A stretch of DNA of 64,000 nucleotides from Armatimonadota bacterium (GTDB taxonomy: Bacteria > Armatimonadota > SYMT01): positions 640,001 to 704,000 of the forward strand of contig JAWLHY010000003.1 in the NCBI GenBank assembly GCA_041690135.1, written 5' to 3'. The notes under the pieces were generated by a model. That model was not told the DNA's origin and searched no databases. It saw only the letters and a list, made by a program, of their open reading frames with translations. How positions within the stretch are numbered: position 1 is the first letter of the stretch; the number at the start of each line of letters is the position of its first letter. The position numbers and the translations under genes were made by a program. Below, piece by piece: positions 8,628 through 56,808 of the stretch.

Positions 8628-8646
8628 ACTTCCTATTTCCGACCAA

Positions 8647-12262: not shown

Positions 12263-12276
12263 TCTCCCCTCCCGTG

Positions 12277-12976: not shown

Positions 12977-13078
12977 TAGCCAGGCACGGAATCGGCACGC
13001 TGGGTCCCGATCCGCTGCCCGCTCCCATCGCAGGACTCTTTCCAACCGGGGGAAGGGTTTGCGTGGGACAGGAAGATC

Positions 13079-17268: not shown

Positions 17269-17312
17269 GCAGATGGCAGTGGGCAGTAAGCAGTCGGCGA
17301 AAGGCGGAAGGC
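17262..17312. repeat. heptamer-period repeat (GGCAGTA-like)
   Basis: gcggtag gcagatg gcagtgg gcagtaa gcagtcg gcgaaag gcggaag. Confidence 0.55.
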
Positions 17313-17487
17313 GCTGTACTTGCACCTGGAGAAGTAGGGCGGAGGCTCCCCTACGGGCAAGCTGTCCCCGCCGGGCTTTGGGCTCGCCCCCGTCCTGCCG
17401 TGTGGGCTCCGCTTACCCCGGCATATAGGAACCCGCGAGGCAAAAGGTAACTTGAGGCTCACCCCGGACTGAGCATCGGCACTGAGA

Positions 17488-17640
17488 AGCCCCGGAGGGG
17501 CACCAGGGAATAGCCAGGGGAGCGAGCCTCCGGATGTGAAGCCCGCACAGAATAGCCCCGGAGGGGCGGCAGAGCATAGCCGGGGGTGCAAACCCCCGGA
17601 CGTGATGCCGACACAGAAGAGCCCTGGAAGGGCGACAGAG
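17488..17640. repeat. REP-like tandem array, 66-bp period x3 (family B)
   Basis: AGCCCCGGAGGGGC hairpins at 17488, 17554 and 17620; the first two are followed by a second hairpin such as CCGGGGGTGCAAACCCCCGG. Confidence 0.75.
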
Positions 17641-17702
17641 CAACGCACGTTGAGGAGAACGGTACCGCTCTGGACGACAGCAGCAGGCGGAAGGAATAAC
17701 GA

Positions 17703-27176: not shown

Positions 27177-27947
27177 CTAACCTCGGTATCCGCGGAGGTA
27201 ATCGCGAGTCTCGGGCTCCCTGGGAGCGTCGAAGACGTGCGAGGCGGGCCCATGTTCGACCAGGCATCCGGCCCCGTCCCGCAGCCAGAAGAGCGCCGCC
27301 GCGTCCGCCAGGCGGCGGGCCTGGGCCAGGTTATGGGTGACCACCACCAGCGTATAGCGGCCGCGGAGGCGGAGGATCAGCTCCTCGATGACGCCGGTGG
27401 AGAGAGGATCGAGGGCGCTGCATGGCTCGTCCAGCAGGAGAACTTCCGGCTGAAGCGAGAGGGCCCGCGCGAAGCAGAGCCGCTGCTGCTGCCCTCCGGA
27501 GAGGGCGAGCGCCGGGGCGTCGAGGCGGTCGCGGACCTCCTCCCAGAGGCCGACATCGCGCAGGCAAGCTTCGATCCGGAGGGGGCGCTCCTCCCTCGCG
27601 CAGCCGTGCTCCCGCAGGGGCAGGTCCAGGTTGGCGCGGATCGAGATCGGAAAAGGGTTGGGGCGCTGGAAGATCATTCCCACCCGGCGGCGATGGGCGA
27701 GGAGATCGAGGCGCGGGTCAAGGAGGTCCGTCTCGTCCAGGCGCAGGCTCCCCTCCACCCGGCAGCCGGGGATCAGGTCGGTGAGACGGTTGAGGCAGTT
27801 GAGAAAGCTGGTTTTGCCGCAGCCGGAAGGGCCGACCAGCGCGGTGATGCGTCCTGCCGCGACCCCGAAGGTCACGTCCCGGAGGGCGAGCCGCCCCCCG
27901 TAGGAGATGCGGAGGCCTTCCGCCTGAATGAGGGGTGAAGGATTCAT
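27177..27947 (-). CDS. pstB: phosphate ABC transporter ATP-binding protein
   Basis: GPSGCGKT, FQRPNPFP, LSGGQQQRLC, LLLDEPCSALDP. Confidence 0.95.
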   Translation of the reverse strand: MNPSPLIQAEGLRISYGGRLALRDVTFGVAAGRITALVGPSGCGKTSFLNCLNRLTDLIPGCRVEGSLRLDETDLLDPRLDLLAHRRRVGMIFQRPNPFPISIRANLDLPLREHGCAREERPLRIEACLRDVGLWEEVRDRLDAPALALSGGQQQRLCFARALSLQPEVLLLDEPCSALDPLSTGVIEELILRLRGRYTLVVVTHNLAQARRLADAAALFWLRDGAGCLVEHGPASHVFDAPREPETRDYLRGYRG

Positions 27948-28945
27948 ACCCGGTATGTCTTCCGCCTCCAGTGAGTTGTAAGCCAGGCCGTGCCGCCGTT
28001 CAGGGCCAGCAGGAGGCCGATCAGGACGAGGGCGGAGGCGCAGGCGCCGCCGTCGCCGCCGGAGACGTTCATGGAGAGGTCGTAGATGTGGACCGAGAGC
28101 GCGCGCCCGGAGTCGTGGAGCGACTCCGGCATGCGGTCCACGTAGCCGCTGGTGAAGACCAGGGCGGCCGTTTCCGCCAGGGCGCGCCCGATCCCCAGCA
28201 CCAGGCCCGCCGCGAGGGCCGGCAACGCGGCAGGGAGCAGGATCCGGAAGAGGGTCGTGGTCGGCGAGAGCGACAGCGCGGCCGCGGCCTGGCGATATTC
28301 GGTGGGGACGGCTCGCAGCCCTTCCTCCGCAAGGCGGATGAAGAGCGGCAGCACCATGCACGCCAGGGTGAGGCCACCCGCCAGGATGGAGAACCGCAGC
28401 CCCAGCAGCTTGCAGAAGAGGGCGTTGCCGAACAGGCCGAAGACGATGGAAGGCATGCCGGCGAGCACATCCAGGCTGCGGCGGACCCAGCGCCCGGACC
28501 GGGTACCGGCATGGGAGAACTCCGCCAGGAAGACGGCGGCCGGCGCTCCCACCGCCACGGAGCTGACCATCGCCACCCCCAGAATGAGTAGCGTGGAGAC
28601 AAGGATCGGGCCGATGCCGCCGGACCGCCCCGCATCGGCGGGGGGCGTGGTCAGGAAGGCCAGAGAAAGGCGCGCCGCGCCCTGAAAGGCGACCGCGGCC
28701 AGCAGCCAGGCGAAAACACCCGCCACGAGCCCCGCGGCACCCCAGACGACTACCGCGGCCAGCCGGTCCGCCCGGAACGCGCGGTTAAGCAGAACTGCAG
28801 AGGGCTCGCCCCCGTCCCTGAGCTGGCGAGCTTGCCCGTATGGAACCGCGGCCGGCCGCCGGAGAGTTGGTCCGCTTCTTCCGCGTCCTTCCGCGTGTTC
28901 CGCGGGCATAATTCGCTTTCTCATTCCGTGGTCTTTTCTAGACAT
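27944..28945 (-). CDS. pstA: phosphate ABC transporter permease PstA (start uncertain; N-terminal extension contains a short repeat)
   Basis: GGIGP.LVST, LAGMPSIVFGLFG, IGRALAETAAL. Confidence 0.92.
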   Translation of the reverse strand: MSRKDHGMRKRIMPAEHAEGRGRSGPTLRRPAAVPYGQARQLRDGGEPSAVLLNRAFRADRLAAVVVWGAAGLVAGVFAWLLAAVAFQGAARLSLAFLTTPPADAGRSGGIGPILVSTLLILGVAMVSSVAVGAPAAVFLAEFSHAGTRSGRWVRRSLDVLAGMPSIVFGLFGNALFCKLLGLRFSILAGGLTLACMVLPLFIRLAEEGLRAVPTEYRQAAAALSLSPTTTLFRILLPAALPALAAGLVLGIGRALAETAALVFTSGYVDRMPESLHDSGRALSVHIYDLSMNVSGGDGGACASALVLIGLLLALNGGTAWLTTHWRRKTYRV

Positions 28946-42834: not shown

Positions 42835-43055
42835 TAGCGCCCGCCCAGCGCCACAGTGGGAATGATTCTGGAAAGAGGTGGCGGCCGCTGCCCCAGTACA
42901 GGCAAAAGTAGGGCGGGATCTCCGCCCCCGCGGGGCATTGGGCTAGCACCCGTCGTGCCGTTCCATTCCGCAGCCTGTAAAGCTGATCCCGTTCGGCCAA
43001 ACCGTGGGAGCTTCCAGACCGAAACCTCACCGTTTTGCCTGCCCGGATCGGCCCT

Positions 43056-43655
43056 TCAGGAGCCGTTGGCCTCGCGCCACCAACACTGCGCGGTTTGGAA
43101 GAACTCCTCGGCCGCTTCCGGAGAGGGAAAGGCCGACTTGGGAATGAGCGTGGTGGCGCCGGCCCGCCAGTAGATGAGGAGGTGCGAGCGGGTATTGCCC
43201 ACGTCCTGCACGTGTTGCCACACGATACGCGTGGTGCCCACGCCTTCCGTCCAGCCGCCCACCAGTTCGGGGGTAATCCAGGCGGTGTGCGGCCCGCGGA
43301 AGCGGGGGTTCTTCCGGGCCTGCCAGCGCACCAGCAGCGGCAGCATGAAGGCGATCCCGAAGATGACCGCCGCCATCAGCGCGATGCCCGCGGAAGGCCC
43401 GATGGTCAGGCCCAGGCCCACGTTCATCATCATGAAGAAAAAGAAGGCGAGCGGCATGCGCCGCCGGACGACCGGGTGACCGAGAAAGCCGTAGAAGTAA
43501 CCGGCCAGCGCGTCCCCCTCGTCCAGTTCGAACCGGACTTTCAGCCGTTCTTCCCCGTCAGCTTCCTCCGCGGCAGGCTCTGTCGCGGCGTCCGGCTCCC
43601 CCTGCCTCGCTTCCATCTCCGCCGAGCGTTCTTCCCTCAACTCTTCATCCGTCAT
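43056..43655 (-). CDS. YcxB-like membrane protein
   Basis: Two TM helices then W.HV....IPKSAF.S C-terminal motif; GGAGG RBS. Confidence 0.75.
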   Translation of the reverse strand: MTDEELREERSAEMEARQGEPDAATEPAAEEADGEERLKVRFELDEGDALAGYFYGFLGHPVVRRRMPLAFFFFMMMNVGLGLTIGPSAGIALMAAVIFGIAFMLPLLVRWQARKNPRFRGPHTAWITPELVGGWTEGVGTTRIVWQHVQDVGNTRSHLLIYWRAGATTLIPKSAFPSPEAAEEFFQTAQCWWREANGS

Positions 43656-43786
43656 CCCAATCCTCCAACCGGCGCGGGCGAGGCTCCGGTGAAGTGCCGG
43701 CCGCGGGGACACCTACTATCTCATCACAAGGAGTCGTTTTCGGCCGGTCGGAATGGCCGCGCGGGTAAACGGACGGGTGCGTATAA

Positions 43787-44086
43787 TTAGCCGGCGCGCC
43801 GATGCGCCAGACCGCCGGAGACAAGTGTCTTCAGGAACTCATCCACGTCGACACGCGCGGTCTCCGGTGACACGTCGTATTCCGCGCAGAGGGCGTTCAC
43901 CATTTCCGGGAGCGTGGGACGTTCGGCCAGCAAGGTCCAGAGGGTGGAACCGACCTCGTCGAGGGTGTAGATCGCTTCCAGGTCGCCGACCCGACCGCGT
44001 ACCGGAACGAGGATCGTCTCGCCGCCGATCCGGCGCATCACCAGGTTGGGATCCCGTTCGTAGCGGGCTTCTTCATTCATTGCCAT
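43787..44086 (-). CDS. PqqD-family RiPP recognition element (stand-alone RRE)
   Basis: R.IGGETILVP...IYTLDEVGSTLW.LL...L..EYDV..E.AR.DV.EFL..L...GL. Confidence 0.92.
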   Translation of the reverse strand: MAMNEEARYERDPNLVMRRIGGETILVPVRGRVGDLEAIYTLDEVGSTLWTLLAERPTLPEMVNALCAEYDVSPETARVDVDEFLKTLVSGGLAHRRAG

Positions 44087-45308
44087 TCCCCGTTGCTTCT
44101 CTCTTCCGCCGCATGGCCGCTTTGAAACTCCCCACGACGCCGTGCGCACGTCGCCGGAAAAAATGAGCTCGCCACGGGCCGATCGGCTCGGTGGGGGCCA
44201 GGGCGTAACGCCAGCGGAGGTGCGCCTCCGAAGGAAACGCCTGCCGGATCAGGTAGCGACCGCGTGCCGCCCATCCCCGGATCTCCCCCACCGCCGCCAG
44301 CCGGTCGCGACACGTCTCCCAGGCGCGCGCCTCTCGCCGTGCGGAGCCGGTTGCCAGGCGTTCCCACGCCCACTCCGGGGCTTGCTGCGGCCAATCGGGT
44401 CCGCTGACGCCGAGGTATGCCGCGAGCACCCTGCACACCTGGCCCAACTCTCGCTCGATACCCCAGCGCTCCGCGCACTGCCGGAGCTCGTTCCACGCCA
44501 CGGTTTCCGGGTGGCGCCGGGCTAAAAGCGCCAGATCGACCAGCCAGGCCAGCGGCGCGAAATCCTCTTCCAGGTGACGCACGTAGTGGACCGCTCCGTG
44601 GAGAAAGAAGTGCCGCCAGGCCAACCGGTGGACGGGTATTCCGTCCAGTTCGTCGGGCGTCGCCGCTCCCCACAGGTCCCGTAGAGCGGCCTCGCGGCGC
44701 CCGCGCGACCCGAGCACCTGGAGGTGCAGTTCCACCGGCAGGGACCCGGTGCGTACATAAGGGGGGAAGTGGGTCCGCCGCGCCTTGACCTGCTCCTCTT
44801 CAGGGGAGGTGCTGGAGGCCAGGGGCGCATAGCCCAGGTCGAGCAGCGTGCGGCACGCGGCTTCGGCCTGTTCCGGCCGTACGAGAAGATCGAGATCTCC
44901 CAGAGCCCGCTGCTCCAGCTCCGGGTAGAGCCACGTCAGCGCGGCCGCTCCCTTGAGTGGGAGCACCCGGATGCCGGCCTCCGCGGCGGTGCTGGCGATC
45001 TCGCGGGCCTGTTCCAGAGCCCGAAGGCTGCGGAGGTACTGCCCCTGCACGCAGCGGGTCCAGTCCGGAGGAAGCGAAGCTCCCAGGGCTTCCGCCGATA
45101 CCGCTCCCAACAGCCGGTGGTGCAGCACGGCGTGCCACAGCGCCACGGTGGGGGCGGTCGTCGGCAGGCCGGGAGAGGACGGCTCACCCGCCAGAGAGCG
45201 GCAGAGCCGGAGGAGGACGGCCGGAACACCGTCCTCCTCCGGCTCGTTCGCCGGTGTGTTTGTGTCAGCGCGGTCGTGACCGCCGCGGGTTTCCCTTCGC
45301 AGGTTCAC
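44073..45308 (-). CDS. nucleotidyltransferase family protein (NTP_transf_5-like)
   Basis: LPLKGAA...Y...R.LGDLDLLV...LGY...VELH; overlaps the PqqD start. Confidence 0.88.
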   Translation of the reverse strand: MNLRRETRGGHDRADTNTPANEPEEDGVPAVLLRLCRSLAGEPSSPGLPTTAPTVALWHAVLHHRLLGAVSAEALGASLPPDWTRCVQGQYLRSLRALEQAREIASTAAEAGIRVLPLKGAAALTWLYPELEQRALGDLDLLVRPEQAEAACRTLLDLGYAPLASSTSPEEEQVKARRTHFPPYVRTGSLPVELHLQVLGSRGRREAALRDLWGAATPDELDGIPVHRLAWRHFFLHGAVHYVRHLEEDFAPLAWLVDLALLARRHPETVAWNELRQCAERWGIERELGQVCRVLAAYLGVSGPDWPQQAPEWAWERLATGSARREARAWETCRDRLAAVGEIRGWAARGRYLIRQAFPSEAHLRWRYALAPTEPIGPWRAHFFRRRAHGVVGSFKAAMRRKREATGNGNE

Positions 45309-45315
45309 GAGGCTG

Positions 45316-48300
45316 TTAGCGGATCCGCATGCTGGGGTCTCCGAAGAGCACCCAGGTCTTCCGCACGTCGGGATGTCCGGCGTCGTGCTTGGCGGCCAGC
45401 GCGGCCTCGCCCAGCGTGTACTGCCCCGCGAACAGATAACCGTAGAACTGCAGGTTCAGCTCCATCTGCGCCGTCGGCAGGCTGGTTCCGGAGGAGGTGA
45501 ACGCCGCCACGGCCCCGCCGTTCGGCGTGTTCACCAGCGCCTCGGCCAGGCAGTCCCGGAACACGTCGTTGAACAACCCGTTGAGGCAGGTCATGCTCAC
45601 GAATAGCGGCAGGCGGGTCCCGTTCCCCAGGCGGCCGGCATCCCCCGCGGTGAGCACGTCGCCGCGCCAGCCGTCGTCCGTGCCGTGGCCCAGGTAGTTC
45701 ACGATGAGCTGACCGCCGCCGAGGGCGGACAGCAACTGCGGACGGGTCGCACCGCCGCTCTCGCCACGCAGGATCTGCTGCGAGGAGAGCAGGTTGGGCA
45801 GGTAGGAAGAGAGGATCCCCACCCCCTCGGTGAAGCTGTAGCCGGCATCGTCGGCATCGCCCACCAGAAGCACCTGCTTCCGCCAGGCTTCCGCCTTGTT
45901 CCCCTGGTCGTAGCCCACGATCTTGCTGATCACCGCCGTGGCGGCCGCCGCCGTGCGGACCGGCAGTCGGCCGGTGGGGAGGTTGCCGACCCCGTCACCG
46001 TCCCAGTCCGTGAACCAGTCGTCCGAGGCCGTCTCGATCGTGCTGGTCGCCACGGTCATGGTCGGCAGGTAGTCGTGGTACCCCCGGCCCAGGTAGTTTC
46101 GCGGGTCGTAGCTCGCGTCGCCCACCAGCAGGACGAACCGGGGCGCTTTGCTCCAGTTCTGCTGGGTGAACGCCAGGAAGTCCCGGAGAGCGTGCGGGCT
46201 CTTATGGCCGAACGCGAACTCGTCGTAGACGTCTTCCACGTCCACCACCGCCACCGCCAGCCCCTGCGCCTGCCGCAGGTTCTTCAGTGCCGTGACGCTG
46301 CTCCGGAAGTCTCGGTGTGCCAGGATCACCAGATCGGCGCCGTTGCTCCCCTGGGTGAGGGCGGAAGGCTCATTCGCGGTCACCGCCACGGGGGCCAGCA
46401 GTTGGTCCTTCCGGAACGCCACGAGCACCCGGGTCTGGCCCAGGCCGCCGGGCACGGTGGCGGTAAAGGTGTACTCCCGGCGCTTCTTCCGGAACTTGCC
46501 CAGGACTTCGATGGGCGACTCGGGGTTCGTGACGTCGAAGACCCGCACCGTGGAGCGGGTGAAGCCGCCCACGCTGATCGCCTTTCCGCCCGGCGCCGTA
46601 AACACCAGGCTGTCGCCGCTGGCCTGGTAGGCACGGGTGTAGGTGAGGCGGAGGGTATCGACCAGGCTCACGTCCGAGGCGCCGCCCAGGGCCTGCAGGG
46701 TGACCGTGTTGGCGCCATCCTGCAGCAGGGCCGCCGCGACCGGGAAGAGCGCGGAGCGGTTCTCGTGGCCGTCGAAGGCAACCTCTCCCACCACCGTGCC
46801 GTTCAGGCGGACCTGGACGCGATGGTCCTCCGTGCCGGCGAGAGCGGTCACGCCCTGCAGCACCACCTGAAGCTGGGCGGGGTCGCTGGCGCCCGCCGCC
46901 ACGCCGGAGAGGGTGAGGGTCTGGTTCAGGGACTGGGAGTTCACCACGGGGCCGAAGAAGTTGTCGGTTTCACCGTTCAACAGCGCGGCGAACCGGATGG
47001 TGCGATCCTTCCGCTCGACCGTGGAGCGGAAGCTGGCCGGCACCTCGCCGGTGCCGGACCCGCGCACCTGCGGCACCCGGCCGCCCGCACCGGAGCCGGA
47101 GACCAGCCAGTAGGTGCGCACGTCCGTAAAGGCGGTGTCGAGGCCGCGCCCGTAGAACTCCACTGTATCGCGGGACTGGAAGCGGCCGTCCCGCTCGCCC
47201 ATCACCAGGAGCGGCACCTCCACCCCGTCCGCGAACAACCGGAAGGTGCGGGGATCGACGCGCTTGTTCACCCCGGCGGCCAGGAGCTGCTTGTAAGTCA
47301 GCTTGACCCAACCCTCGCCGCGGATCTGCACCTTCACCGCGGCCCCACCGGCGAGGCCCTTCTGCACGGAAGCCTGCCGGGTGCGCGGCACGCGCCGCCC
47401 GGGCACGGTTGCCAGCCGGATGGGTCCTTCGTAAACGCCCGGCTCCTCTCCCGCCTCCTGGGGCAGTTCACCCAGGGTCGGGGAAGCCTGGAGCGCCTGC
47501 CGAGAGGCCGGACCGTCCGTCACATAGAAGGGGCCATGCAGCGTGCGGTGACCGTTGAGGTCCACGTCTTCCAGGAAATACTGGCCGCCGGGCTTGGGGT
47601 CCCACCACGTATAGGAACGGCCGGCTTGCAGGGCCACCCCCCGGGCCAGGAGCGCGGAGCCGGCAATCAAGTTCCGGTTCACGCGGGTATCGGGGCCCAC
47701 GTCTTCACGGTAGAGGTTGAACCCGAGGTTATCCACCTCGTGGCCCGTCTTCCACTCCAGGGCCACGCCGCCCTGGGTGCGGGAGGCGCGGAACTCCTGC
47801 AGCCGGATGGCGCTGGGGGAGAAAGTGTAGGCCGGGTCCTGCGGGCCGAACTGCACCGGCGGGATATCCGCCAGGCCGAACACGCCGTAGATGTCCGGCC
47901 CCAGGTCGCCGGTCTGGGCCGAGATCCGCACGCCGACGATCGCCTGCACCGGGGTGACGTTGAAAAGGTCGCTAAGGTCGACCCCCATGGCCCCCAGTTG
48001 TTGGCCGCTGCCGATCTCGAAGGTGTCGATGTAGATGCCGGTGGCGTAGGAGGGCGTGCCGTTGGTATCTACCAGAAGCTGCACATCGCCCAGGATCGGG
48101 TTATCGAGCGTGCCGCCGGCAAGAATCGCCTCCACGTGCAGCATGGAGTTGCGGCCGCGCTCCAGGAACAGCAGCTCGGGAACGGCGTCCAGCGCCGCGG
48201 GGTTGTTGTCGCTGACGGTCTTGGTGAAATACAGGTCGTAGGCGAACCTGTCGGTCTCGCCGTCCGTCCCTTCCACCAGCGAGTAGCTGTTGTAGGCCGA

Positions 48301-48807
48301 CCGGATCGCCAGGTCCTGGTAGGGATAGGTGGTGGAGTCGTTCGCGGCCGTGCCCCCTTCCGCAACGAGCCCGGCCTTCACGAACGGGTTAGCGTTGCCG
48401 TCGTCATCCGTATCCTGATCCCCGTACTCCGCGTTCACATTGATCTCGGTGCCCGCATACACGCCGGTACGCCGGACCACCGCCTGCTGGGCATGGATTC
48501 CCTCGTTGGTCGCGTCGTCGCTGGTGACGGTGAAGACGGTGGCTCCAAAGGTGACCGTGCTCAGATAGACGTCGTCGACAAAGGGAAGTCCGGAAGTCCC
48601 GTCGCGGCCCAGCGCGGTGTTCCGGCTGCCGGAGGGCACAGTGACGGTCAGCCCCGTCGGGGCAAAGGGGGCCGCCTGGACGGGGGAACTCCCCAGCGTC
48701 AAGAGGGCGATGGAGGCCAGGGGGGCAAAGAGCGACACGGCCCGGGAAACTCCCGCGGTCTGTCTTCGGAGGAAGCGTGCGATCATTCCAGTGCGTACCT
48801 CATTCAT
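45316..48807 (-). CDS. secreted multidomain C25 (gingipain-like) cysteine peptidase
   Basis: Signal peptide; DVYDEF..G, LLVGDASYD, GRLPVR, NYLGHG (His), SMTCLNG (Cys), LFGDP. Confidence 0.88.
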   Translation of the reverse strand: MNEVRTGMIARFLRRQTAGVSRAVSLFAPLASIALLTLGSSPVQAAPFAPTGLTVTVPSGSRNTALGRDGTSGLPFVDDVYLSTVTFGATVFTVTSDDATNEGIHAQQAVVRRTGVYAGTEINVNAEYGDQDTDDDGNANPFVKAGLVAEGGTAANDSTTYPYQDLAIRSAYNSYSLVEGTDGETDRFAYDLYFTKTVSDNNPAALDAVPELLFLERGRNSMLHVEAILAGGTLDNPILGDVQLLVDTNGTPSYATGIYIDTFEIGSGQQLGAMGVDLSDLFNVTPVQAIVGVRISAQTGDLGPDIYGVFGLADIPPVQFGPQDPAYTFSPSAIRLQEFRASRTQGGVALEWKTGHEVDNLGFNLYREDVGPDTRVNRNLIAGSALLARGVALQAGRSYTWWDPKPGGQYFLEDVDLNGHRTLHGPFYVTDGPASRQALQASPTLGELPQEAGEEPGVYEGPIRLATVPGRRVPRTRQASVQKGLAGGAAVKVQIRGEGWVKLTYKQLLAAGVNKRVDPRTFRLFADGVEVPLLVMGERDGRFQSRDTVEFYGRGLDTAFTDVRTYWLVSGSGAGGRVPQVRGSGTGEVPASFRSTVERKDRTIRFAALLNGETDNFFGPVVNSQSLNQTLTLSGVAAGASDPAQLQVVLQGVTALAGTEDHRVQVRLNGTVVGEVAFDGHENRSALFPVAAALLQDGANTVTLQALGGASDVSLVDTLRLTYTRAYQASGDSLVFTAPGGKAISVGGFTRSTVRVFDVTNPESPIEVLGKFRKKRREYTFTATVPGGLGQTRVLVAFRKDQLLAPVAVTANEPSALTQGSNGADLVILAHRDFRSSVTALKNLRQAQGLAVAVVDVEDVYDEFAFGHKSPHALRDFLAFTQQNWSKAPRFVLLVGDASYDPRNYLGRGYHDYLPTMTVATSTIETASDDWFTDWDGDGVGNLPTGRLPVRTAAAATAVISKIVGYDQGNKAEAWRKQVLLVGDADDAGYSFTEGVGILSSYLPNLLSSQQILRGESGGATRPQLLSALGGGQLIVNYLGHGTDDGWRGDVLTAGDAGRLGNGTRLPLFVSMTCLNGLFNDVFRDCLAEALVNTPNGGAVAAFTSSGTSLPTAQMELNLQFYGYLFAGQYTLGEAALAAKHDAGHPDVRKTWVLFGDPSMRIR

Positions 48808-49305
48808 TTACTCGGCCGTGGCGAAACGGTCGGCCCGCTGCGGGCTGCCGACGCGGGCCAGGAGGGTGTTTCCGAACCGCCGGAGCGGCCGGAGGAGTGC
48901 CCGGAGCGAGCGAGGACACCGCGCCCGGATCACCCGCAAGTAGTTGGGGGAAGTCAGATCGAGCGGTTCGCCGTCCCGCTCAACGGCCGTAACCCGGCCC
49001 AGGACCGCCGAGGCGGGCACCGGAGCGTCCGGCTGGTCGGTGGCATCCCCGTGGAAGAGATAGCCGGTCTCCCCGGAGGGCAGCCTCACCCGCCCCACCA
49101 GGCGATGGGCCGTCAGCCAGTCCCGGCCCTGAAAGAGGAAGATTCGGCCGATCTGCGCCTCTTCGAGCGCTACCGGTTGAACCAGTAGGACCTCGCCGGA
49201 GCGGATCGCCGGCTCCATGCTGCCGCCTTCGGCCCGGAAGCGGATCTCGTAGCCGGCGCGGAGCAGTTCCGTGCTGATGCGGTCGAAACGAAGCAGTTGC
49301 TGCAT
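48808..49305 (-). CDS. S24/S26-family peptidase without membrane anchor (Ser/His type)
   Basis: GGSMEPAIRSGE, HRLV, GD...PD, VLGRV; its stop abuts the C25 ATG. Confidence 0.85.
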   Translation of the reverse strand: MQQLLRFDRISTELLRAGYEIRFRAEGGSMEPAIRSGEVLLVQPVALEEAQIGRIFLFQGRDWLTAHRLVGRVRLPSGETGYLFHGDATDQPDAPVPASAVLGRVTAVERDGEPLDLTSPNYLRVIRARCPRSLRALLRPLRRFGNTLLARVGSPQRADRFATAE

Positions 49306-50247
49306 CTAGGCGGCTCCATGCCAGGCCCGGACCGCCGCGATGGCGGAGTGGTCCGGAACGAAATGAAAATCGAGCGCGGGGACGGTCTCTGCCAGGTCCT
49401 GCAAGGAGTCCAGGGTGAGTTGCAAGCCCTCCGGGTCATAGAACGGAGGGAAGCTCGCCGCGAACAGCCGGGCCACCGCTTCCGTCACGGGCAGCAGCCG
49501 GAGCGTGTTGCCCGGCCCGTGGTGAAGGAAGAAGAGCCCATCCAACCGGGCGCTTCCCGGTTCGGCGGTGCCGGCGTCGCTCTGCCAGGGCGTTCCGTAG
49601 ACCCGCAACTCCTCTCCCCGCCTCCGGACGACCACCCGATCGTCCGCCAGGACGGTGGCGCCGCTCTCGCGAGTCCACAGCCGGGCCAGCGTGCTCTTCC
49701 CCTGGCCGGAGGCGCCCACGAACAACAGGCCCGCCCCGCATGTCAATCGCACCGCACACCCGTGCAGCTCCACTCCGCCCCGCCGGGCCAGCAGGCGCAG
49801 CAGCAGGAGCTCATCCAACGGGGACTGGAGGGGATGAACCGGTTCATCCGGAGGAAAGGCACTCCGGCGCAGGAGCACCTCTCCCCGGCAACCGTCCCGG
49901 TCCAGCCGCGCGACCGCGAAGGGCCGGCTGCCGTGCCGGGGCGCGGCTAGCCGGAACTCCAGGTCTTCTCCCCGGTCGTAGAGCTTCCACACGGCGCCGG
50001 AGTCGAAGCGGAGCGGCAGGTCCGGAAGGGGCGTGTCCGTTCCCCAGCAGGCCGTGATCCGGCAGTCGGGCCGGGTGCTCTCCTTCGGGGTCAACTGGAA
50101 CTTCCGGGCCGTGCCGGTGGCAGCGGGCGCCAGATCGGGGGAGCCCGAGCGGACTGCCACGACCAGACCGCCGAGACCGAGAGTAAACCCGGGCGTGGAG
50201 GAACCCGCGCCCGGTACTGGAGGAGCTGCCATCATACCGCTGGACAC
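49306..50247 (-). CDS. HprK-related kinase-like protein
   Basis: LHGCAV, Walker A GASGQGKST, LADDRVVV, YGTPW. Confidence 0.82.
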   Translation of the reverse strand: MSSGMMAAPPVPGAGSSTPGFTLGLGGLVVAVRSGSPDLAPAATGTARKFQLTPKESTRPDCRITACWGTDTPLPDLPLRFDSGAVWKLYDRGEDLEFRLAAPRHGSRPFAVARLDRDGCRGEVLLRRSAFPPDEPVHPLQSPLDELLLLRLLARRGGVELHGCAVRLTCGAGLLFVGASGQGKSTLARLWTRESGATVLADDRVVVRRRGEELRVYGTPWQSDAGTAEPGSARLDGLFFLHHGPGNTLRLLPVTEAVARLFAASFPPFYDPEGLQLTLDSLQDLAETVPALDFHFVPDHSAIAAVRAWHGAA

Positions 50248-50259
50248 GGGTGGGATGGA

Positions 50260-50439
50260 TCAGGAGCCGATGGTCAGGCACGCGGCCGGGGTCAGGCAGT
50301 CCACCTGCACCGGGCCGGAAACGCCGACGTTGCGGCAGGCGCCCAGCACCGCCTGCTCGGGCCGCAGCTCGACTCGCTGGATCTGGGGCTTCCGGTAGAC
50401 CTTTTTGGAGCCCGCGGCCCCGGTGGTTTCGTGTTCCAT
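50260..50439 (-). CDS. putative RiPP precursor peptide, 59 aa (not in ORF track)
   Basis: MEHETTGAAGSKKVYRKPQIQRVELRPEQAVLGACRNVGVSGPVQVDCLTPAACLTIGS; YxxP leader motif, 3 Cys, C-terminal Ser; fills the rSAM-kinase gap. Confidence 0.85.
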   Translation of the reverse strand: MEHETTGAAGSKKVYRKPQIQRVELRPEQAVLGACRNVGVSGPVQVDCLTPAACLTIGS

Positions 50440-50472
50440 CTTGATTGTTTCTGTTTCTTTACGGAGTGGGGT

Positions 50473-51690
50473 TCAGCTCGCCTGGAGCACGGGAAGCGCT
50501 ACCCAGGGTCGCGTTTCCGCCTGCTCGACGCGGGAATGGAGCCGGCGCGCCTCCTCGGTGACTTGCGGGTACCGGGAGCCGCCTGCGCAGTAGTCGCAGT
50601 CGCCGTGCGGAGGCACCTCCGCCCCCAGGGCATGGGCGCGGAGGTGGGCGACGTGACAGTGAAAATCGACGGGTTCCTCTTTGTCGCCGTGGTTCAGCTC
50701 GCCGTTGGCGGGGCACATCCCGCACAGGAGCTTCAGGCGGCAGTGGGTGCACTTCGTCTCCCGGGTCCGCCGGGCGTCGCGCACCCCGCGCAGGAAACTC
50801 TCCCACCCCTCCCGGAAGCTGCCCCGGCGCAGGTCGTAGTGGTCCTGGTGCGAGATTACGCAGGCGCTCATCCGCCCATAGGGGTCCACGGCGAAGGAGC
50901 TCACCCCCGCCCCGCAGCTATAGACCTCCTCGGCGTGCACCGTCACCGGGAGCGGCTCGCCGATCCGCGCCGCCGTGTCCCGCCAGCCGGCCCGCCGGAC
51001 CGGGTCCTCCAGGTCCAGCTCCACCGCGTCTTCCGGCGTGAGGCGGACGGCCAGCGGACTGCTGGAGCAGTCGATCCGCGGGTTGAGCAGCGCGTCGAAC
51101 TTGAACTCCACGCCCCGGGCCTTGGCGAACTGCTTCATGGCGGCCAGCTCGTGGCGGTTCTGACGGGTGACCGTGGTCTTCAACCGAAGCGGCAAGTTCC
51201 GCTCCAGCAGCAGGTCGATGCCGCGGAGGCAGCGATCGTAGGAGCCGGGAACACCCGTCACGGCCTCGTACACCTCCCGCGTGGCCCCGTAGAGGGTGAT
51301 CTCCATGCGGAAGGGCGGCCATTCCGCAAGGGTGTCCGCAATCCGCGGCGTGATCAGGGTGCCGTTGGTGAAGAGGGTGATGAAGAAGCCGTGCTGCTTG
51401 GCGAGGATGTGGATATCCAGGAAATCCGGCCGCGCGAAGATCTCTCCCCCGGTCAACAGCAGCCAGAGGGTGCCGGCCTCCGCCATCTCCGCCATCAAGC
51501 GCGCGTACTCGGCCGTGGAGAGTTCGCGCTCGCGCGCCGCGGCATCCGCCATGGGGAGATTGTTGTAGCACATCCGGCATTCGAGGGGACACCGCAGCGT
51601 CACCTCCAGCGTCCCGCTCACCGGGATCCTTCCGGGCTCCACCTGGGACTTGAGCCGGTGGCCCCAGTCCATGTAACCAAGCTGCTCCAT
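50473..51690 (-). CDS. radical SAM / SPASM-domain peptide maturase
   Basis: CPLECRMC, TGGE, FTNG; SPASM CGAG...C...CTHC..KLLCGMCPA...C plus a distal CDYC. Confidence 0.93.
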   Translation of the reverse strand: MEQLGYMDWGHRLKSQVEPGRIPVSGTLEVTLRCPLECRMCYNNLPMADAAARERELSTAEYARLMAEMAEAGTLWLLLTGGEIFARPDFLDIHILAKQHGFFITLFTNGTLITPRIADTLAEWPPFRMEITLYGATREVYEAVTGVPGSYDRCLRGIDLLLERNLPLRLKTTVTRQNRHELAAMKQFAKARGVEFKFDALLNPRIDCSSSPLAVRLTPEDAVELDLEDPVRRAGWRDTAARIGEPLPVTVHAEEVYSCGAGVSSFAVDPYGRMSACVISHQDHYDLRRGSFREGWESFLRGVRDARRTRETKCTHCRLKLLCGMCPANGELNHGDKEEPVDFHCHVAHLRAHALGAEVPPHGDCDYCAGGSRYPQVTEEARRLHSRVEQAETRPWVALPVLQAS

Positions 51691-52272
51691 GGGGTACTTC
51701 TATACGTTCGGCAGGGGAGGGCCCACGATCCGGGAGAGAACGGCCCAATTGCGGCGACGCCGGAGCGGACCCGGCGCTACAGGGCCCGCCCGACTTCGGT
51801 GTCTCAGCCCCAAATCATCTTCGGGATCGAGCTTGAGAACCCGCATGAACTACACAGGTAATCTTCTTTTCGAGGGGCATACTCCTGCATTAGGGATTAA
51901 AATCCCCAATTTCTATCAGTAGACAGGGACAAAAATCCTTGTTCGCCAGGCAAGCAAATAGCTGGAGGAGGTAGGGAACGGGTTAGCGGGAGTGAACCCC
52001 AGCGGTTGGAACCGTCAGATAGCGGGGGAGAGTACCGGAATACGGGACAAGCCTCTGCTCCGCATAGAAGCTGGTTGGTAGTCGGGAAAGAGAGGAAATG
52101 ATGTTCCATTCCAGCCTGGAGCTTAGCCGCGACGCCGGGGCGAAGCACGCCCGGTTTGGGTTCTGGAGCGATAACCAGGACACGCTTCGCCTGTCGCAGC
52201 GTTTTCACGCGCAGGTCGTCCGCACGCCGGTCCTGCTCGCGCGCGCCCTCTCCTCAACGGACGCGACCGCCC

Positions 52273-52860
52273 ATGCTTCCTCCTGAGCGGCAAGCCGAGA
52301 TCATCGTGGTCACCGGACTTCCGCGCTCCGGGACCTCCCTGGCCATGCAGATGCTGGCTGCCGGCGGATTACCCCTGCTCACGGACAACGTCCGGCCGCC
52401 GGACGACGACAACCCCCGCGGCTACTGCGAGTATGCTCCCGTGCTGCGGACCGCCAGGGATGCCTCCTGGGTCTCGCAGGCGGAAGGCCGGGCCGTTAAG
52501 GTGGTCCATGCGTTGATCGCCCACCTTCCGGCGGGCCACCGCTACCGGGTCATCCTGATGGACCGCCCGCTCCCGCAGGTTCTCGCGTCCCAGCGGAAGA
52601 TGCTTGCCCTCCTCGGCCGGCCGGGGGCCTCCTTAACGGAGGAACAGCTGGCCGCCGTGTTCGCGCGCCAGTTGGAGGAGATCGTGAACTGGATGGAGCA
52701 GTCGCCCGAGATTTCCTGGTTCCGCCTTCGCTACCCGGAGGTCGTTGCCGACCCGGCCTGGGCCGCGACGGCCCTCAACCGGTTCCTGGGGGGAGGCCTC
52801 AACGAGAAAGCGATGGCCTCCGTGGTGGACCCGTCGTTGTACCGGCAGAAGCATCCTTGA
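52273..52860 (+). CDS. sulfotransferase family protein
   Basis: VVTGLPRSGTS PAPS-binding loop, DDDNPRGY.E, VILMDRP..QVLASQ. Confidence 0.87.
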   Translation: MLPPERQAEIIVVTGLPRSGTSLAMQMLAAGGLPLLTDNVRPPDDDNPRGYCEYAPVLRTARDASWVSQAEGRAVKVVHALIAHLPAGHRYRVILMDRPLPQVLASQRKMLALLGRPGASLTEEQLAAVFARQLEEIVNWMEQSPEISWFRLRYPEVVADPAWAATALNRFLGGGLNEKAMASVVDPSLYRQKHP

Positions 52861-52943
52861 CCCGTCACCAATTCCAATGCCCCGCCTGAATGGCGGCAAG
52901 TGCAGTTCGGCGACTCTGGATACTGGGAGCGAGACCGCCACGG

Positions 52944-53640
52944 GGTGAACCGTAGAGCGGTTGAGGCATGCCCGGAGTCCCGCTGCAAGGCGGGCCTTCG
53001 CGAGCGGGGGGTCCGGATCCCATGATGGAGAGCGGTGTGCTCCTGGTACCAGCGGGAGCCGTGGTAGACGAGGACGGGCACCCGCAATAACGGTTGCGGG
53101 AGGTCTGGATCCCGTGATGGAGAGCAGTGTGCTCCTGGTATCGGCGGGAACTAGGGTAGACGGTGACGGGCGCCCGTATCAGAAGTCGCGAAGGCCCGCC
53201 TCGCAGCGGGACTCCGTCAAGCACCATGAAAGGTTACTGATAACTGTGCCGGGCTTCTAATGCCCAACTCGCCAACCCGGACTCGAAGCTTTGAAGATTG
53301 ACCAAAGCTTCAGCGCCCCTGTGCTGAGCCTGGAAAGTTGCAAGAGCCGTTTGGCGCTTCCAGGTGCTGGAGGCGGGGCGGGCATGGGTTGTACCGTAGT
53401 ATGCACGGGCCATGCCCGGAGTCCCGCTGCAAGGCGGGTCTTCGCGAGCGGGGGATCCGGATCCCATGATGCAGAGCGGAGCGCGCCCAGGTACCAGCGG
53501 GAGCCGTAGTGGACGATGACGGGCACCCGTACCAGAAGTCGCGAAGGCCCGCCTCGCAGCGGGACTCCGTCAAGCACCATGAGCGGTGTGCGATCACTGT
53601 GCCAGGCTTCTAACGCTCAACTCGCTAATCCGGACTCGAA
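52944..53640. repeat. tandem composite REPIN/MITE-like element, 2 units (family A, inverted relative to the 3.3-kb copy)
   Basis: IR pairs at 52973-53003/53186-53216 and 53417-53447/53539-53569; period 444 bp; internal ~90-bp module present twice in unit 1 and once in unit 2. Confidence 0.87.
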
Positions 53641-53710: not shown

Positions 53711-55186
53711 TTATTCCTTGACGGAGCCATAACCTTGCTGGCTAGCCTGCCAGCCGGAGAGGCGCTTGAGGAGGGGGCGCAGTGCGGCGCGGTACATGGG
53801 GCTGTCGGGGTGGCGGCCCGCGAACTCGGCCAGCATCCGGTTCTCGCGGCGGAGCTCGGCGGCGGCCTCGGCTTGCAGGCGAGTGCGCTCCGCCTCGTCC
53901 ACGCCGGCCCAGAACTGGTCGAACTCCGCTTCCGCCCGGGCCTGCTGCTCCTCCCGGGTGGCCTGTTCCGCTTCCCGGGCTCGAACGCGCTCAGTACGGG
54001 CCTGGGCCTCCTGGGCCTGCATCCAGCCGGGAGGCGCCGACCATCCCTCCCGGATCGATTTCACCAGCACCCCGCCCGGGTTCTTCGCGTCCCGGTAGGG
54101 GAGGTAATCCAGTTGCCGGTCGCACTCCTCCGGGACCGACCGCGCAAGGTCGAGGGCATCCTTGCGCGAGACCCCCTGCTCCATCAGGCGACGGCTGCGC
54201 GACTGTATCTCTTCCGGCACCGAAGGCGGCGCAGGACTGGGGGCCGAAGCGGAGGCCGAAGGCGGTGCCGGAGCGGGGGATGGAGTGGCAGCCGGGGTTT
54301 TCTCCACCACGAGATCCGGCAAGGTAAGGCGGCCGTCGCGGGTGGGGAAGCGATAGATGACCATCAACTCGCCCGGCTGCGTCCGCATCTCCGCATACTC
54401 CGTGGCGAGCAGGAAGCCCCGGTCGATGAGCTCCTGGTGCGCGGGATCGAGCTTCCGCTTGATCTGGGAGGGGTAGTAGTTGCGGGAGAGCCCCAGGTGC
54501 TCGAACGCCAGCTTGCGCAGGCCGATGCGGTAGAGCGGCTTGCCGTCGTACCGTTTCGCGTCCAGGTAGCGGTAGAGCGCCTTGGCGATGGAGCTTTCCA
54601 GCGAAAGGAAGAGGTGCACGTCCAGGCTCTTCAGGTAGCCCGCCTGCATGTTCCGGTAGAGATAGGGGCTCCAGGTGATCCAGCTCGGAAAGAGCGCCGG
54701 CTCGTCGGTCCCCGCCTCGCGGCTGCCGGTGATGTCGAACTCCGCGATGATGCCGATCGATCGCTCCCGTTCCCACCGGCGCTTCTGGGCATCGAAGAAG
54801 GCGTTCTTGGCCGAGATGGAGATCCCGCGCAGGCGGTGCAGCCCCGTTACCAGCCGCTCGTAGCTGCGGCCGTGCTGGTCCCACCCCAAACGTTCGATCA
54901 ACTCGTAGCGCGAAAAGGTGACCCGCTCCGGGAAGGACTGCTCCCGCGTCAACTCCATCAGCACCACGTAGAGATCCACGTCCGCCGAGGTGGGCAGTCC
55001 GTACTTGGGGCTACCCTGAACGACCCATTCCTTCTCCCCGTCTCGAAACTCGATGACCAGGGGGCTTTCCTTGGACCCACGGCTCGCCAGGACGGCAAAC
55101 GGAAATTCCGTCAGGTTCAGTTCATCGCGACCCGTGCGAGGGGCTACAGGGGCAAGGTCCAGGGGAAGCTCATTCTGGCCCGGCAT
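53711..55186 (-). CDS. repA: plasmid-type replication initiator protein (RPA / RepA-like)
   Basis: GRDELNLTEFPF, GLPT..D.D, V.FSRYEL, YLKSLD...F.SL.S..AK.LYRYLD, L.PA..EL...GFL; iteron array directly upstream. Confidence 0.8.
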   Translation of the reverse strand: MPGQNELPLDLAPVAPRTGRDELNLTEFPFAVLASRGSKESPLVIEFRDGEKEWVVQGSPKYGLPTSADVDLYVVLMELTREQSFPERVTFSRYELIERLGWDQHGRSYERLVTGLHRLRGISISAKNAFFDAQKRRWERERSIGIIAEFDITGSREAGTDEPALFPSWITWSPYLYRNMQAGYLKSLDVHLFLSLESSIAKALYRYLDAKRYDGKPLYRIGLRKLAFEHLGLSRNYYPSQIKRKLDPAHQELIDRGFLLATEYAEMRTQPGELMVIYRFPTRDGRLTLPDLVVEKTPAATPSPAPAPPSASASAPSPAPPSVPEEIQSRSRRLMEQGVSRKDALDLARSVPEECDRQLDYLPYRDAKNPGGVLVKSIREGWSAPPGWMQAQEAQARTERVRAREAEQATREEQQARAEAEFDQFWAGVDEAERTRLQAEAAAELRRENRMLAEFAGRHPDSPMYRAALRPLLKRLSGWQASQQGYGSVKE

Positions 55187-55326
55187 ACAACAACAACTCC
55201 TCCAGCCGCTGCTCCGAACGTTTGACCGGCGGGCAGTCGCGTAGTTCCAGTAGTTCCAAACGGGTGTTCTAAGTATAGTTCCAGAGCCCGAGAATGCCCT
55301 GATTCGGCCGTAGATTCCGAATGCGG

Positions 55327-55939
55327 CTTGCCTCATCTTCCGGTACGGCTTGCCTCACCGTCCGGTACCCCTTGCTCCGTTTTCCGGTACCCCTTGTCCC
55401 GCATTCCGGGGGCCCTTGCCCCGGCGTCCGGGGATTTCTTGCTTCGCCGTCCGGTACCCGCTCGGGCGCTGCCGGTGCAAGGGAATCCTGCTTCGCCGTC
55501 CGATACGGGGTGTCGTTTTGGGTCAGGCGCCGGAAGGGGCGCAGACCCCGAGTACCGCGGCCATCAGGCACGGGCTCTTGCCCCGTGGTCCGGTACGGTT
55601 AAGAGTGGGGTAGCCGGCTTTGCTGCGTGAGGAACCCGATCCCAGGCACGAAACGAACGGAAAAGGGATTGCGCGTCTCGTGCCTGGGGGCTCGATTCCG
55701 GGTTTGTCTCGCGGTCCGGTACGGGGCGCGGAGGCGGAGCTTGCCCCGAGTTCCGGTAGGCCGGCGGAATCGCTCGAATCCATCCTTGCTCCGGTGTCCG
55801 GTACATGGCCCATCCGGCGCTCCGGATTCAGCCCTTGCCCCGGATTCCGGTACTTCCGTCGATCCGTTCCGATTCACTCCTTGCCCCGTTGTCCGTGATT
55901 CACCGCCAGGAAAGGCGTTCTTGCCCCGTTTTCCGGTAC
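55327..55939. repeat. iteron array (consensus CTTGCCCCGNNNTCCGGTAC, about 13 copies), putative replication origin
   Basis: Copies at 55327, 55349, 55371, 55393, 55415, 55438 (22-23 bp period) and at 55487, 55577, 55740, 55785, 55834, 55880, 55920. Confidence 0.85.
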
Positions 55940-55966: not shown

Positions 55967-56713
55967 TCAGGGAACGATCTGGTGATCGGGGAAGTGCATG
56001 TGCCGGATCGTGGGGTACTTGCGCCAGGCGGCGTGGCCGTCGACAAAGGCGTAGTTCGTGCCGTCGTTATGCCGGCGGACGTTGAAGAGGGGCTCCACCG
56101 CGGCGAGACCGTTCCAGGCGTCGTAGTCGTCCTGGTTGTGGCCCTGGGCGGTGATGCCGCTCTCGCAGAAGAGGATCGTCTCCGCGGGGCTCACCATCCG
56201 GGGGTCGTCCTGCACGTACTTGTTGGCGGGCAGGGGATAGGTGGGATCGGCCGGCGGGGAGTTATGGGTGAAGTAGGCGTTGATGAGATAGCTGGGGCGC
56301 TCCACCCGGCCGGAGTTGGGGTTCACCAGGGCGGTGGCCGGGTCGCTGCGGCAGATGCCGATCCGGTCATTCTTCATGTAGGGCGCCAGCTCGTCTTTCC
56401 AGAAGATCTCCGCCAGGCCGGCGTGGTGGAAGTAGAGCTGCCCGTCGTGGTCCGCGAAGTACATCCCGGCCGCCAGCCCGATCTGGCGCAGGTTGGAGAG
56501 GCAGTCGATCGAGCGCGCCTTCTCCCGCACCTGCGCGAAGACGGGGAAGAGGATGGCGGCGAGGATGGCGATGATCGCTATCACCACGAGGAGCTCGATG
56601 AGCGTGAAAGCGCGGCGAGATCGATAAAGATAACGATAAGGATAAAGAGAAGAGTGGGAGGGAGCGAGTGGATAAGGGAGAGGATGAGGGGGGCGGGTGG
56701 AAAGGGGGTTCAT
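55967..56713 (-). CDS. prepilin-type DUF1559 / H-X9-DG protein (start uncertain)
   Basis: [42 protein letters not shown]; [15 protein letters not shown]. Confidence 0.9.
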
Positions 56714-56808
56714 ACGATTCTCCGAATCCTCATACATGAGGTCTGACAATCGTATCTCGGCAACGGCCCCCCTGCCCGTCCTCCGAGGGATTTAAGCGAG
56801 CGGATCGG

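Follow-up and report, generated by a model that had tools for sequence, protein, structure and literature searches.

Among the pathways for peptides made by the ribosome and modified after translation (RiPPs), the closest described relative of the locus reported here is that of the linear polyphosphorylated peptides (LPP), encoded by lppA-K-B-S-D-N in Paenibacillus alginolyticus (Popov et al., Nat Commun 2026; PMC13381572). The main text of that paper describes LPP clusters in Bacillota, with LppK as a serine kinase, LppN as a nucleoside triphosphate (NTP) transferase, an MsbA-like pump, and LppS as a leader peptidase of the archaeal signal peptidase I (SpI) type (catalytic S29/H68/D93), for which the RiPP recognition element (RRE) LppB is needed in leader cleavage. 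In lasso peptides of the paeninodin/pseudomycoidin type, according to PMC6993621, the kinase PsmK phosphorylates the C-terminal serine of a precursor that must end in Ser, and PsmN, which requires D134/D136, adds a hexose to that phosphate. Here we analyse a 64-kb stretch of Armatimonadota DNA (contig JAWLHY010000003.1, positions 640,001 to 704,000; "the window", whose own coordinates are used unless another locus is named). Its minus strand carries a seven-gene operon (study region 43787-51690), in which a toolkit of this kind is joined to a radical S-adenosylmethionine (rSAM) enzyme with a SPASM-type domain and to a PorU-like cysteine peptidase of family C25.

Sequence comparison leads us to favour, with moderate confidence, the view that this operon would make a cross-linked, C-terminally phosphorylated RiPP, using an LPP/paeninodin-type toolkit together with an rSAM/SPASM maturase and a PorU-like surface peptidase. 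That the seven co-oriented genes (Table 1) form a real operon, as an earlier preliminary description of the locus had it, is confirmed in the DNA. The stop codon of the kinase gene (TAG) directly abuts the ATG of the S26 peptidase gene, whose TAA directly abuts the ATG of the C25 gene; 7 nt separate the C25 TAA from the GTG of the nucleotidyltransferase (NTase) gene, and the start of the PqqD-like RRE frame contains the NTase stop. The gap between the rSAM and precursor genes is 33 nt, and the precursor stop lies 12 nt from the kinase GTG. The PqqD ORF spans 43787-44149, reaching a GTG at 44149; its probable start is the ATG at 44086.

The operon holds four of the five LPP core genes as given in PMC13381572. 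The likeness extends to a discrete lasso-type RRE, a kinase resembling HPr kinase (HprK), an NTP transferase, a YxxP leader, the lack of a lasso cyclase, and an SpI triad at nearly the same positions (S29/H67/D87 in the window against S29/H68/D93 in LppS). Unlike LPP, the window has an rSAM/SPASM enzyme as its first operon gene, three invariant cysteines in its precursor and a C25 partner. Its precursor family shares only YxxP with the LPP leader (YxxPxVLxHQxIxFETxxS), and the LPP core itself is described as linear, phosphorylated at Ser3, and lacking both fixed Cys and a terminal Ser. None of the words radical, rSAM, SPASM and Acidobacteri occurs in the main text of PMC13381572, the supplementary tables of which might list SpI clusters outside Bacillota. 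With the paeninodin/pseudomycoidin lasso peptides of PMC6993621, the window shares the HprK-like kinase, a PF14907-type NTase with a DxD motif, a B1-type RRE and a precursor ending in Ser, here the predicted kinase site; it differs from them in that the rSAM/SPASM enzyme and the SpI-like peptidase replace the lasso cyclase (C) and the B2 cysteine protease. In line with the absence of a lasso cyclase read earlier from the letters alone, neither an Asn-synthetase-like lasso cyclase nor a B2 transglutaminase-like protease gave a Pfam match among the 40 window ORFs scanned. The use of an S26 peptidase in place of the B2 protease, also suggested earlier, has an experimental precedent in LppS (PMC13381572, main text). 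The kinase, NTase and stand-alone RRE had been regarded as a lasso tailoring set. They do occur in lasso clusters, but are not confined to them: with an SpI-like peptidase they have constituted the LPP core since 2026 (PMC13381572, main text).

The cassette is conserved well beyond the window. A metagenome scan with the rSAM alignment gave 600 pattern matches, of which at least 583 stretches encode rSAM relatives; the best 80 loci were retained for analysis. Genes were counted by tblastn with the window proteins, restricted to loci with enough flanking DNA. The rSAM is present in all loci by construction, because they were collected with an rSAM query. The RRE lies just upstream of it in 64 of 70 loci, and the kinase is found downstream in all 45. 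The S26 peptidase is downstream in 32 of 38 by tblastn, and the six that tblastn missed were picked up with a family HMM (four downstream, two upstream). The precursor gene follows the rSAM directly in 61 of 63 loci; because of this recurrence at the same place, the 59-aa ORF, already proposed as a precursor, is by comparative evidence a real gene. Association of precursor and cassette, first noted in a single sequence, is thus also seen with the homologous rSAMs. The order RRE-rSAM-precursor-kinase-S26 is nearly invariant in the 80 loci; in the window the RRE is shifted to the operon end. A PF14907 gene was detected by HMM in 17 of the 80 loci, many of which are short. Cassettes with such a gene are L012, L014 and L016 (from genomes), L020, L024, L031 (two copies) and L032. 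Some loci have glycosyltransferases and a Wzz-like gene at their flanks, and ABC transporters are found beside two only (L032, L043).

Among 61 genomes of the same phylum, 56 have some rSAM match and three, the window's included, a close one (E<1e-100); the other two are 64% and 56% identical, the 64% match being in a genome from the same order as the window's. At the protein level, 5833 of 8000 candidates scored were rSAM relatives at E<=0.001. The 119 relatives listed besides the window's own are 57-64% identical, and those that are named among the matches listed come from Acidobacteria/Pyrinomonadaceae plus one Armatimonadetes metagenome-assembled genome. When genome contigs were scanned with the single rSAM sequence, the sole match was to an unrelated locus from Spirochaetota, at 31% identity over 70 residues.

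Precursor homologues were found in 66 of the 80 metagenome loci; 64 are complete, representing 61 distinct sequences. The family motif is YxxPx6LRPEEAVLGxC[KR], with R in the place of K in the window. In the 61 distinct precursors, conservation is 100% at the Y and P of YxxP and, within LRPEEAVLGxCK, at L, E, V, L, C and K. In a 32-member alignment, Y15, P18, L25, P27, V31, C35, G42, C48, C54 and S59 of the window precursor are invariant; directly after the invariant core Gly comes a Pro that is nearly so. The 21-28 residues following C-K are hypervariable, with a high content of Gly, Ser, Thr and Ala. This stretch contains exactly two cysteines in 60 of the 61 distinct precursors, the last of them five residues from the C-terminus (CxxxGS) in 59. 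A C-terminal Ser is present in all 64 complete precursors, and 60 end in Gly-Ser. None of the 32 family members was matched by a Pfam or NCBIfam model at E<=0.1. The precursor was found in one copy only in the window's genome. In distant cassettes of the same phylum, whose rSAM is 34-42% identical, the precursors are shorter, begin with YxxP or WxxP and likewise end in Ser; one of these cassettes (L014) has two precursor genes in tandem.

The identities assigned earlier to the rSAM/SPASM enzyme, kinase, S26 peptidase, C25 protein, NTase and RRE are borne out by domain matches, and in the case of SPASM by invariant cysteines. The RRE matches PF05402 (62.3 bits). Its top NCBIfam match is the lasso PqqD chaperone NF033536 (38 bits against a cut-off of 80), and its family profile finds the lasso RRE TbiB1 (5e-12), PbaB1 (9x90, 4e-10) and LppB (9x8z, 4e-9), with PqqD only at 1e-4. 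The S26 peptidase matches TIGR02228, archaeal signal peptidase I (E = 2.5e-10). The best matches of its family profile are SEC11C/SEC11A (E = 9e-10), before bacterial signal peptidase I and LexA. Residues S29, M30, H67, R68, G86 and D87 are invariant in 30 homologues. No transmembrane-like segment is present in the protein (peak 19-aa hydropathy 1.19). By these profile comparisons, the RRE is of the lasso-B1/LppB type and the peptidase of the SEC11/archaeal type. A complex prediction of S26 (residues 1-125), RRE and precursor gave a median score of 0.67, and 0.65 with an unrelated protein replacing S26, which yields no argument on binding either way.

The kinase matches TIGR04355 (HprK_rel_B, E = 6e-8), PF07475 (E = 2.9e-5) and, weakly, AAA_33. 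Its alignment to the HPr kinase core (PDB 2qmh/1jb1) covers the P-loop and the DD motif. Invariant residues in 33 homologues are H162, G178, S180, G183, K184, T186, D202, R204 and G218-W221, of which G178, S180, G183, K184 and T186 correspond to the HprK P-loop and D202 to the acidic motif. In the NTase, D138 and D140 of the DxD motif are invariant in nine homologues. Judging from their invariant catalytic residues, the peptidase, kinase and NTase look active.

The rSAM enzyme (PF04055, 75.9 bits) exhibits both the CxxxCxxC motif (C34/C38/C41) and a seven-cysteine motif (C259, C277, C314, C317, C323, C326, C345), all invariant in 26 homologues. We assign the SPASM domain because of these seven invariant cysteines. 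A further invariant CxxC (C365, C368) is located C-terminal to it. The top NCBIfam matches are AhbD (115 bits, cut-off 500), MftC (100/265) and ScmE (80.6/400). Near-full-length alignments are obtained only with MftC (residues 22-323) and TIGR04133 (29-349); the models of PapB, AlbA, SkfB and StsB align only to the N-terminal core. The window resembles the systems of these sactipeptide and ranthipeptide maturases in its seven-Cys SPASM rSAM, its presumed RRE dependence and its Cys-bearing core; it differs from them in having a separate lasso-type RRE and in its scores (PapB 52.5/340, AlbA 46.1/850, SkfB 42/300 bits). To our knowledge, no kinase, NTase or SpI-like peptidase belongs to the sactipeptide and ranthipeptide classes. 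Membership in the PQQ, mycofactocin, SCM, GeoRSP, PapB and AlbA equivalogs was considered and rejected, all the scores against these models being far below cut-off.

The resemblance to the SynChlorMet and HPr-rel cassettes, pointed out in the preliminary description, holds for the gene grammar but not for the scores. SynChlorMet (ScmC/D/E/F) and the GeoRSP/HprK-related kinase B systems are defined by NCBIfam/TIGRFAM models and are uncharacterised, and they combine an rSAM/SPASM enzyme with PqqD-like and HprK-like proteins as the window does. Their models are the nearest named ones for the window kinase (TIGR04355, TIGR04249) and are also among the matches of the RRE and the rSAM. For TIGR04248-04251, TIGR04302, TIGR04303 and TIGR04355, however, the window proteins are all 4- to 8-fold below the curated cut-offs; besides the ScmE value given above, the scores are 18.4/125 for ScmC, 28.4/100 for ScmD, 50.4/400 for the GeoRSP rSAM and 32.2/200 for HprK_rel_B. 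The term SynChlorMet gave no match in the literature searched, and our searches found no paper on a cassette of rSAM and HprK-like kinase. The text of PMC12710340, a structure-based definition of RREs, is without the words HPr, kinase, signal peptidase, S24, S26 and nucleotidyltransferase. On NCBIfam scores and literature, the cassette matches no characterised class in full, as had been surmised. The SpI-peptidase/RRE/kinase/NTase toolkit is known; its union with rSAM chemistry and a PorU-like surface protein appears, from the literature searched, to be new.

The C25 protein was described earlier as part of the operon, which it is; beyond this, it proves to be a conserved and often physically fused partner of the cassette. 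It matches PF01364 (272.5 bits) at residues 827-1162 and exhibits the catalytic residues of peptidase family C25, H1041 and C1074, which are invariant in 10 homologues. Its similarity to PorU (NF033707), the sortase of the type IX secretion system (T9SS), and to gingipain-type C25 proteins covers the C-terminal 680 residues (485-1162 in the PorU alignment, 269.7 bits) and includes the His-Cys dyad. Unlike PorU, it scores below the model cut-off (420), its host is not a member of Bacteroidota (no search was made for T9SS genes), and its module ends giant DUF11-repeat proteins, or the XDP2-like one of the window, fused or adjacent to a cytoplasmic SpI-like peptidase. Residues 330-1163 are the part conserved among cassette partners.

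Fifty loci have an S26 match; in 19 of them the domain is the N-terminal part of a frame 600 aa or more in length. In nine of those 19, the S26 domain and the C25 module are within one frame; five such frames are complete (1276-2507 aa). The fused proteins start with the S26 domain; next comes a basic stretch that includes a single hydrophobic segment (about residues 155-185), then up to seven DUF11 repeats and, last, the PorU-like C-terminus. The window represents a split form of this arrangement, in which the break falls exactly after the S26 domain and before the hydrophobic segment (residues 20-38 of its C25 protein). Among the 16 loci with a full 9 kb downstream, 12 have the C25 module, three a frame of about 2490 aa running off the end right after S26, and one neither. 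In one relative (G007), a contig taken up entirely by the maturase cassette (RRE-rSAM-kinase-S26-NTase) has no precursor gene, which instead lies on another contig, directly upstream of a C25 gene. These fusions and neighbourhoods identify the C25 protein as a partner of the cassette, not a bystander.

Some further observations concern these two proteins. The C25 protein of the window passes the cut-off of the model "exosortase-dependent surface protein XDP2" (NF041929; 85.8 bits, cut-off 75, residues 78-309), yet ends in the C25 domain and not in a PEP-CTERM signal. In C25 homologues at other loci, DUF11 or DUF7948/beta-propeller repeats take the place of this XDP2-like part. A PorU-like C25 gene stands next to a PF14907 nucleotidyltransferase gene, with a 4-nt gap, in L101 (genome G006, 8986-13617), and is grouped with PF14907 and PqqD-like genes in L102 (genome G001, 5756-12377); at neither locus is an rSAM, kinase or recognisable precursor present within about 9 kb. 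This suggests, from gene neighbourhoods, that C25 and the NTase share a link of their own, apart from the cassette. In two relatives of the distant cassettes (G048, G019), an S24/S26-like domain is fused to a GNAT acetyltransferase domain and not to a surface protein (L014, 7956-8918; L016, 8133-9239).

The preliminary description limited the cassette to the seven genes. These stand, but a sulfotransferase gene just outside them recurs with the cassette. In the window it is divergent from the operon, at a distance of 465 nt; its homologues (46-48% identity) lie directly upstream of the RRE-rSAM pair, on the same strand, in four of the 80 loci (L044, L055, L061, L083). The sulfotransferase is thus probably a cassette member too. 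A YcxB-like gene downstream on the same strand (43056-43712) was considered as an eighth operon member and rejected, because it has no homologue in eight related genome loci or in the 80 metagenome loci. No sigma-70-like promoter was detected in 43000-53000, the sigma-70 scan being uninformative for this phylum. The same interval has ten terminator-like hairpins against an expectation of 5.3, but at no gene end is there one by which the operon would be divided; this is likewise uninformative for this phylum. The window contains no tRNA genes, and none of the listed sequencing runs covers it.

Table 1. Genes of the peptide operon and the adjoining sulfotransferase gene (window coordinates)
Feature	Position	Strand	Size and basis of assignment
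rSAM enzyme with SPASM-type C-terminal domain	50473-51690	-	405 aa; PF04055, seven-Cys pattern
Precursor peptide MEHETTGAAGSKKVYRKPQIQRVELRPEQAVLGACRNVGVSGPVQVDCLTPAACLTIGS	50260-50439	-	59 aa; family alignment
HprK-like P-loop kinase	49306-50247	-	313 aa; TIGR04355, PF07475
Soluble SpI-like (archaeal/ER-type S26) serine peptidase, probable leader peptidase	48808-49305	-	165 aa; TIGR02228
PorU-like C25 cysteine peptidase, secreted or anchored	45316-48807	-	1163 aa; PF01364, NF033707, NF041929
PF14907 nucleotidyltransferase	44073-45308	-	411 aa; PF14907 137.4 bits
PqqD-like discrete RRE	43787-44086	-	about 99 aa from ATG at 44086; PF05402
Sulfotransferase, probable accessory tailoring gene	52156-52860	+	234 aa; PF13469 E 4.8e-10

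The pathway that we propose is drawn, in all its steps, from sequence and precedent. The RRE would bind the YxxP leader of the 59-aa precursor and present it to the enzymes. The rSAM/SPASM enzyme would then cross-link the core of about 26 residues through the three invariant cysteines, thioethers being the most likely product. As no characterised maturase family was matched above cut-off, the kind of reaction is guessed from these fixed cysteines. The kinase may phosphorylate the invariant C-terminal Ser59, as PadeK and PsmK do in their own systems. We prefer this residue to an LPP-like Ser3 because it is the sole invariant Ser, and because position 3 after the predicted cut is an invariant Lys/Arg. 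The NTase, perhaps with the sulfotransferase, could further decorate the peptide, in the way that PsmN adds a hexose to the phosphate. The Ser-His-Asp peptidase would remove the leader presented by the RRE, as in LppS-LppB, with a probable cut after AVLG (V at -3 and G at -1; compare F at -3 and T at -1 in LPP). Finally, outside the cell, the C25 protein may act on or with the product at the cell surface.

Several observations weigh against this pathway. The SPASM model PF13186 scores 14.7 bits on the rSAM, below its cut-off of 21.5, though it spans model positions 1-66 of 67, and the enzyme reaches the curated NCBIfam cut-off of no characterised maturase family. In LPP, the sole characterised SpI-type relative, phosphorylation is on core Ser3 and not on a C-terminal Ser, and the NTase LppN exhibited no activity in a heterologous host (PMC13381572, main text). 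Unlike in LPP clusters, no MsbA-like exporter is present among the ORFs flanking the operon (the closest ABC ATPase, 27177-28361, is 15 kb off), so that export is unaccounted for. The C25 module is found in nine of the 61 related genomes, against three with a close rSAM. Two pairs of C25 and PF14907 genes (L101, L103) are without rSAM, kinase and precursor within about 9 kb, and the distant cassettes L014, L016 and L017 are without C25. One genome (G003, 69% complete) has no kinase, S26 or NTase within 19 kb of its RRE-rSAM-precursor-C25 genes.

There is some room, though not much, for the same RiPP pathway operating with an rSAM that makes no thioethers: the enzyme might instead introduce a C-C or C-N link, be an epimerase or work on the C-terminal residues like MftC on the mycofactocin precursor, the cysteines being engaged in disulfides or serving as metal ligands. 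The near-full-length alignments with MftC and TIGR04133, set against the N-terminal matches to thioether makers, point in this direction, as do the additional CxxC past SPASM and the C-terminal G-S and core G-P, which are as invariant as the cysteines. However, the MftC and TIGR04133 scores are so far below cut-off that they carry little information on the chemistry, and three cysteines stay fixed in an otherwise hypervariable Gly/Ser/Thr/Ala-rich core. Fixed cysteines in a hypervariable core are the usual look of sactipeptide and ranthipeptide precursors.

A further reading is that two independent modules merely share the operon, a RiPP module (RRE, rSAM, precursor, kinase and S26) and an unrelated surface module (C25 and the PF14907 NTase). 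The C25-NTase pairs that stand alone in relatives, the wider distribution of C25 than of close rSAMs, and the distant cassettes with an S24-like domain fused to GNAT and no C25 would all fit such an arrangement. We nevertheless consider it unlikely, in view of the single polypeptide formed by S26 and C25 in at least nine loci, the C25 module in 12 of 16 loci with a full 9 kb downstream (and the frames of about 2490 aa in three more), and the G007 precursor, which lies beside C25 and not beside its maturases. In addition, in the sole case tested, as reported in PMC6993621, the PF14907 enzyme acts on a phosphopeptide.

The peptide might, with little probability, be an adaptor or anchor and no free natural product: once matured, it would have its leader cut at the membrane and would be joined covalently by the PorU-like transpeptidase to a surface protein or polysaccharide. 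In a more specific version, which we hold to be quite improbable, the phosphopeptide, matured in the cytoplasm (rSAM cross-links, phosphate on the C-terminal Ser, and a sugar or nucleotide from the PF14907 enzyme), would be the dedicated substrate or adaptor of the transpeptidase rather than a diffusible antibiotic. With the same small chance of being right, the membrane-tethered peptidase would free the peptide at the inner face, and C25 would join it to a DUF11-repeat protein or polysaccharide. The similarity to the sortase PorU over 678 residues with the His-Cys dyad kept, the single hydrophobic segment that tethers the S26 domain to giant DUF11-repeat proteins, the lack of an exporter in the window's cluster and the glycosyltransferase and Wzz genes beside some loci are compatible with anchoring; LPP clusters, according to the authors of PMC13381572, are located within capsular polysaccharide loci. 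All this is circumstantial. The PorU score does not reach the cut-off, a core as variable as this one is rather a mark of diffusible peptides, whether antagonistic or signalling, and no acceptor or sorting signal was identified; the anchor role as a whole thus appears a long shot. If it were true, surface structures of Acidobacteriota and Armatimonadota would be anchored independently of T9SS by way of a ribosomal peptide.

A cofactor pathway like those of PQQ and mycofactocin, in which a redox-active small molecule would be carved from conserved C-terminal residues, is scarcely credible: the combination of rSAM/SPASM, PqqD-like protein and peptidase follows that grammar, MftC is the second-best NCBIfam match and the C-terminus is invariant, but the RRE is of the lasso-B1 and not the PqqD type, no partner dehydrogenases were seen among the window ORFs scanned, and nothing there corresponds to the kinase, the giant surface protein or a variable core in which the Cys spacing is fixed.

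Other parts of the window exhibit features of their own. The gap between the sulfotransferase gene and a RepA-like gene (52880-53640) is built of repeats: direct repeats make up two families, of 154 and 160 nt, at 77-84% identity, and there are also a pair of 81 nt and a 31-nt arm present four times in inverted orientation (94-97% complementary). The next gene (53711-55336, minus strand) resembles replication initiators (PF10134 RPA, E = 4.9e-15; weak TrfA), and upstream of it, at 55566-55938, are four iteron-like direct repeats of 25-30 nt with a spacing of 45-163 nt. Initiator and iterons could constitute a plasmid-type origin, either on a large replicon (the contig is at least 704 kb) or on an integrated element beside the peptide operon. 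Two prepilin-type N-methylation/DUF1559 proteins are encoded at 1350-2069 and 55967-56749; Planctomycetota-like genomes and some of Armatimonadota typically carry this family. A molybdopterin oxidoreductase set (Fe4S4 domain, catalytic subunit and NrfD-like membrane subunit) occupies 13079-18827. Its 204-aa Fe4S4 ORF (13079-13693) and its catalytic ORF of 875 aa (13706-16333) may be parts of a single gene that a stop or recoded codon interrupts.

With at least 583 related stretches, the cassette belongs to the more common of the unexplained systems for peptide modification in soil metagenomes. It occurs chiefly in Acidobacteriota and neighbouring phyla, from which hardly any natural products are known. 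Its invariant YxxP, three cysteines, G-P and terminal G-S offer experimental handles. A toolkit described in 2026 for linear peptides of Bacillota is now seen joined to radical SAM chemistry in other phyla, and the repeated fusion of the leader peptidase with a giant PorU-like protein, which is without precedent in the literature searched, suggests that peptide maturation is linked to the cell surface.

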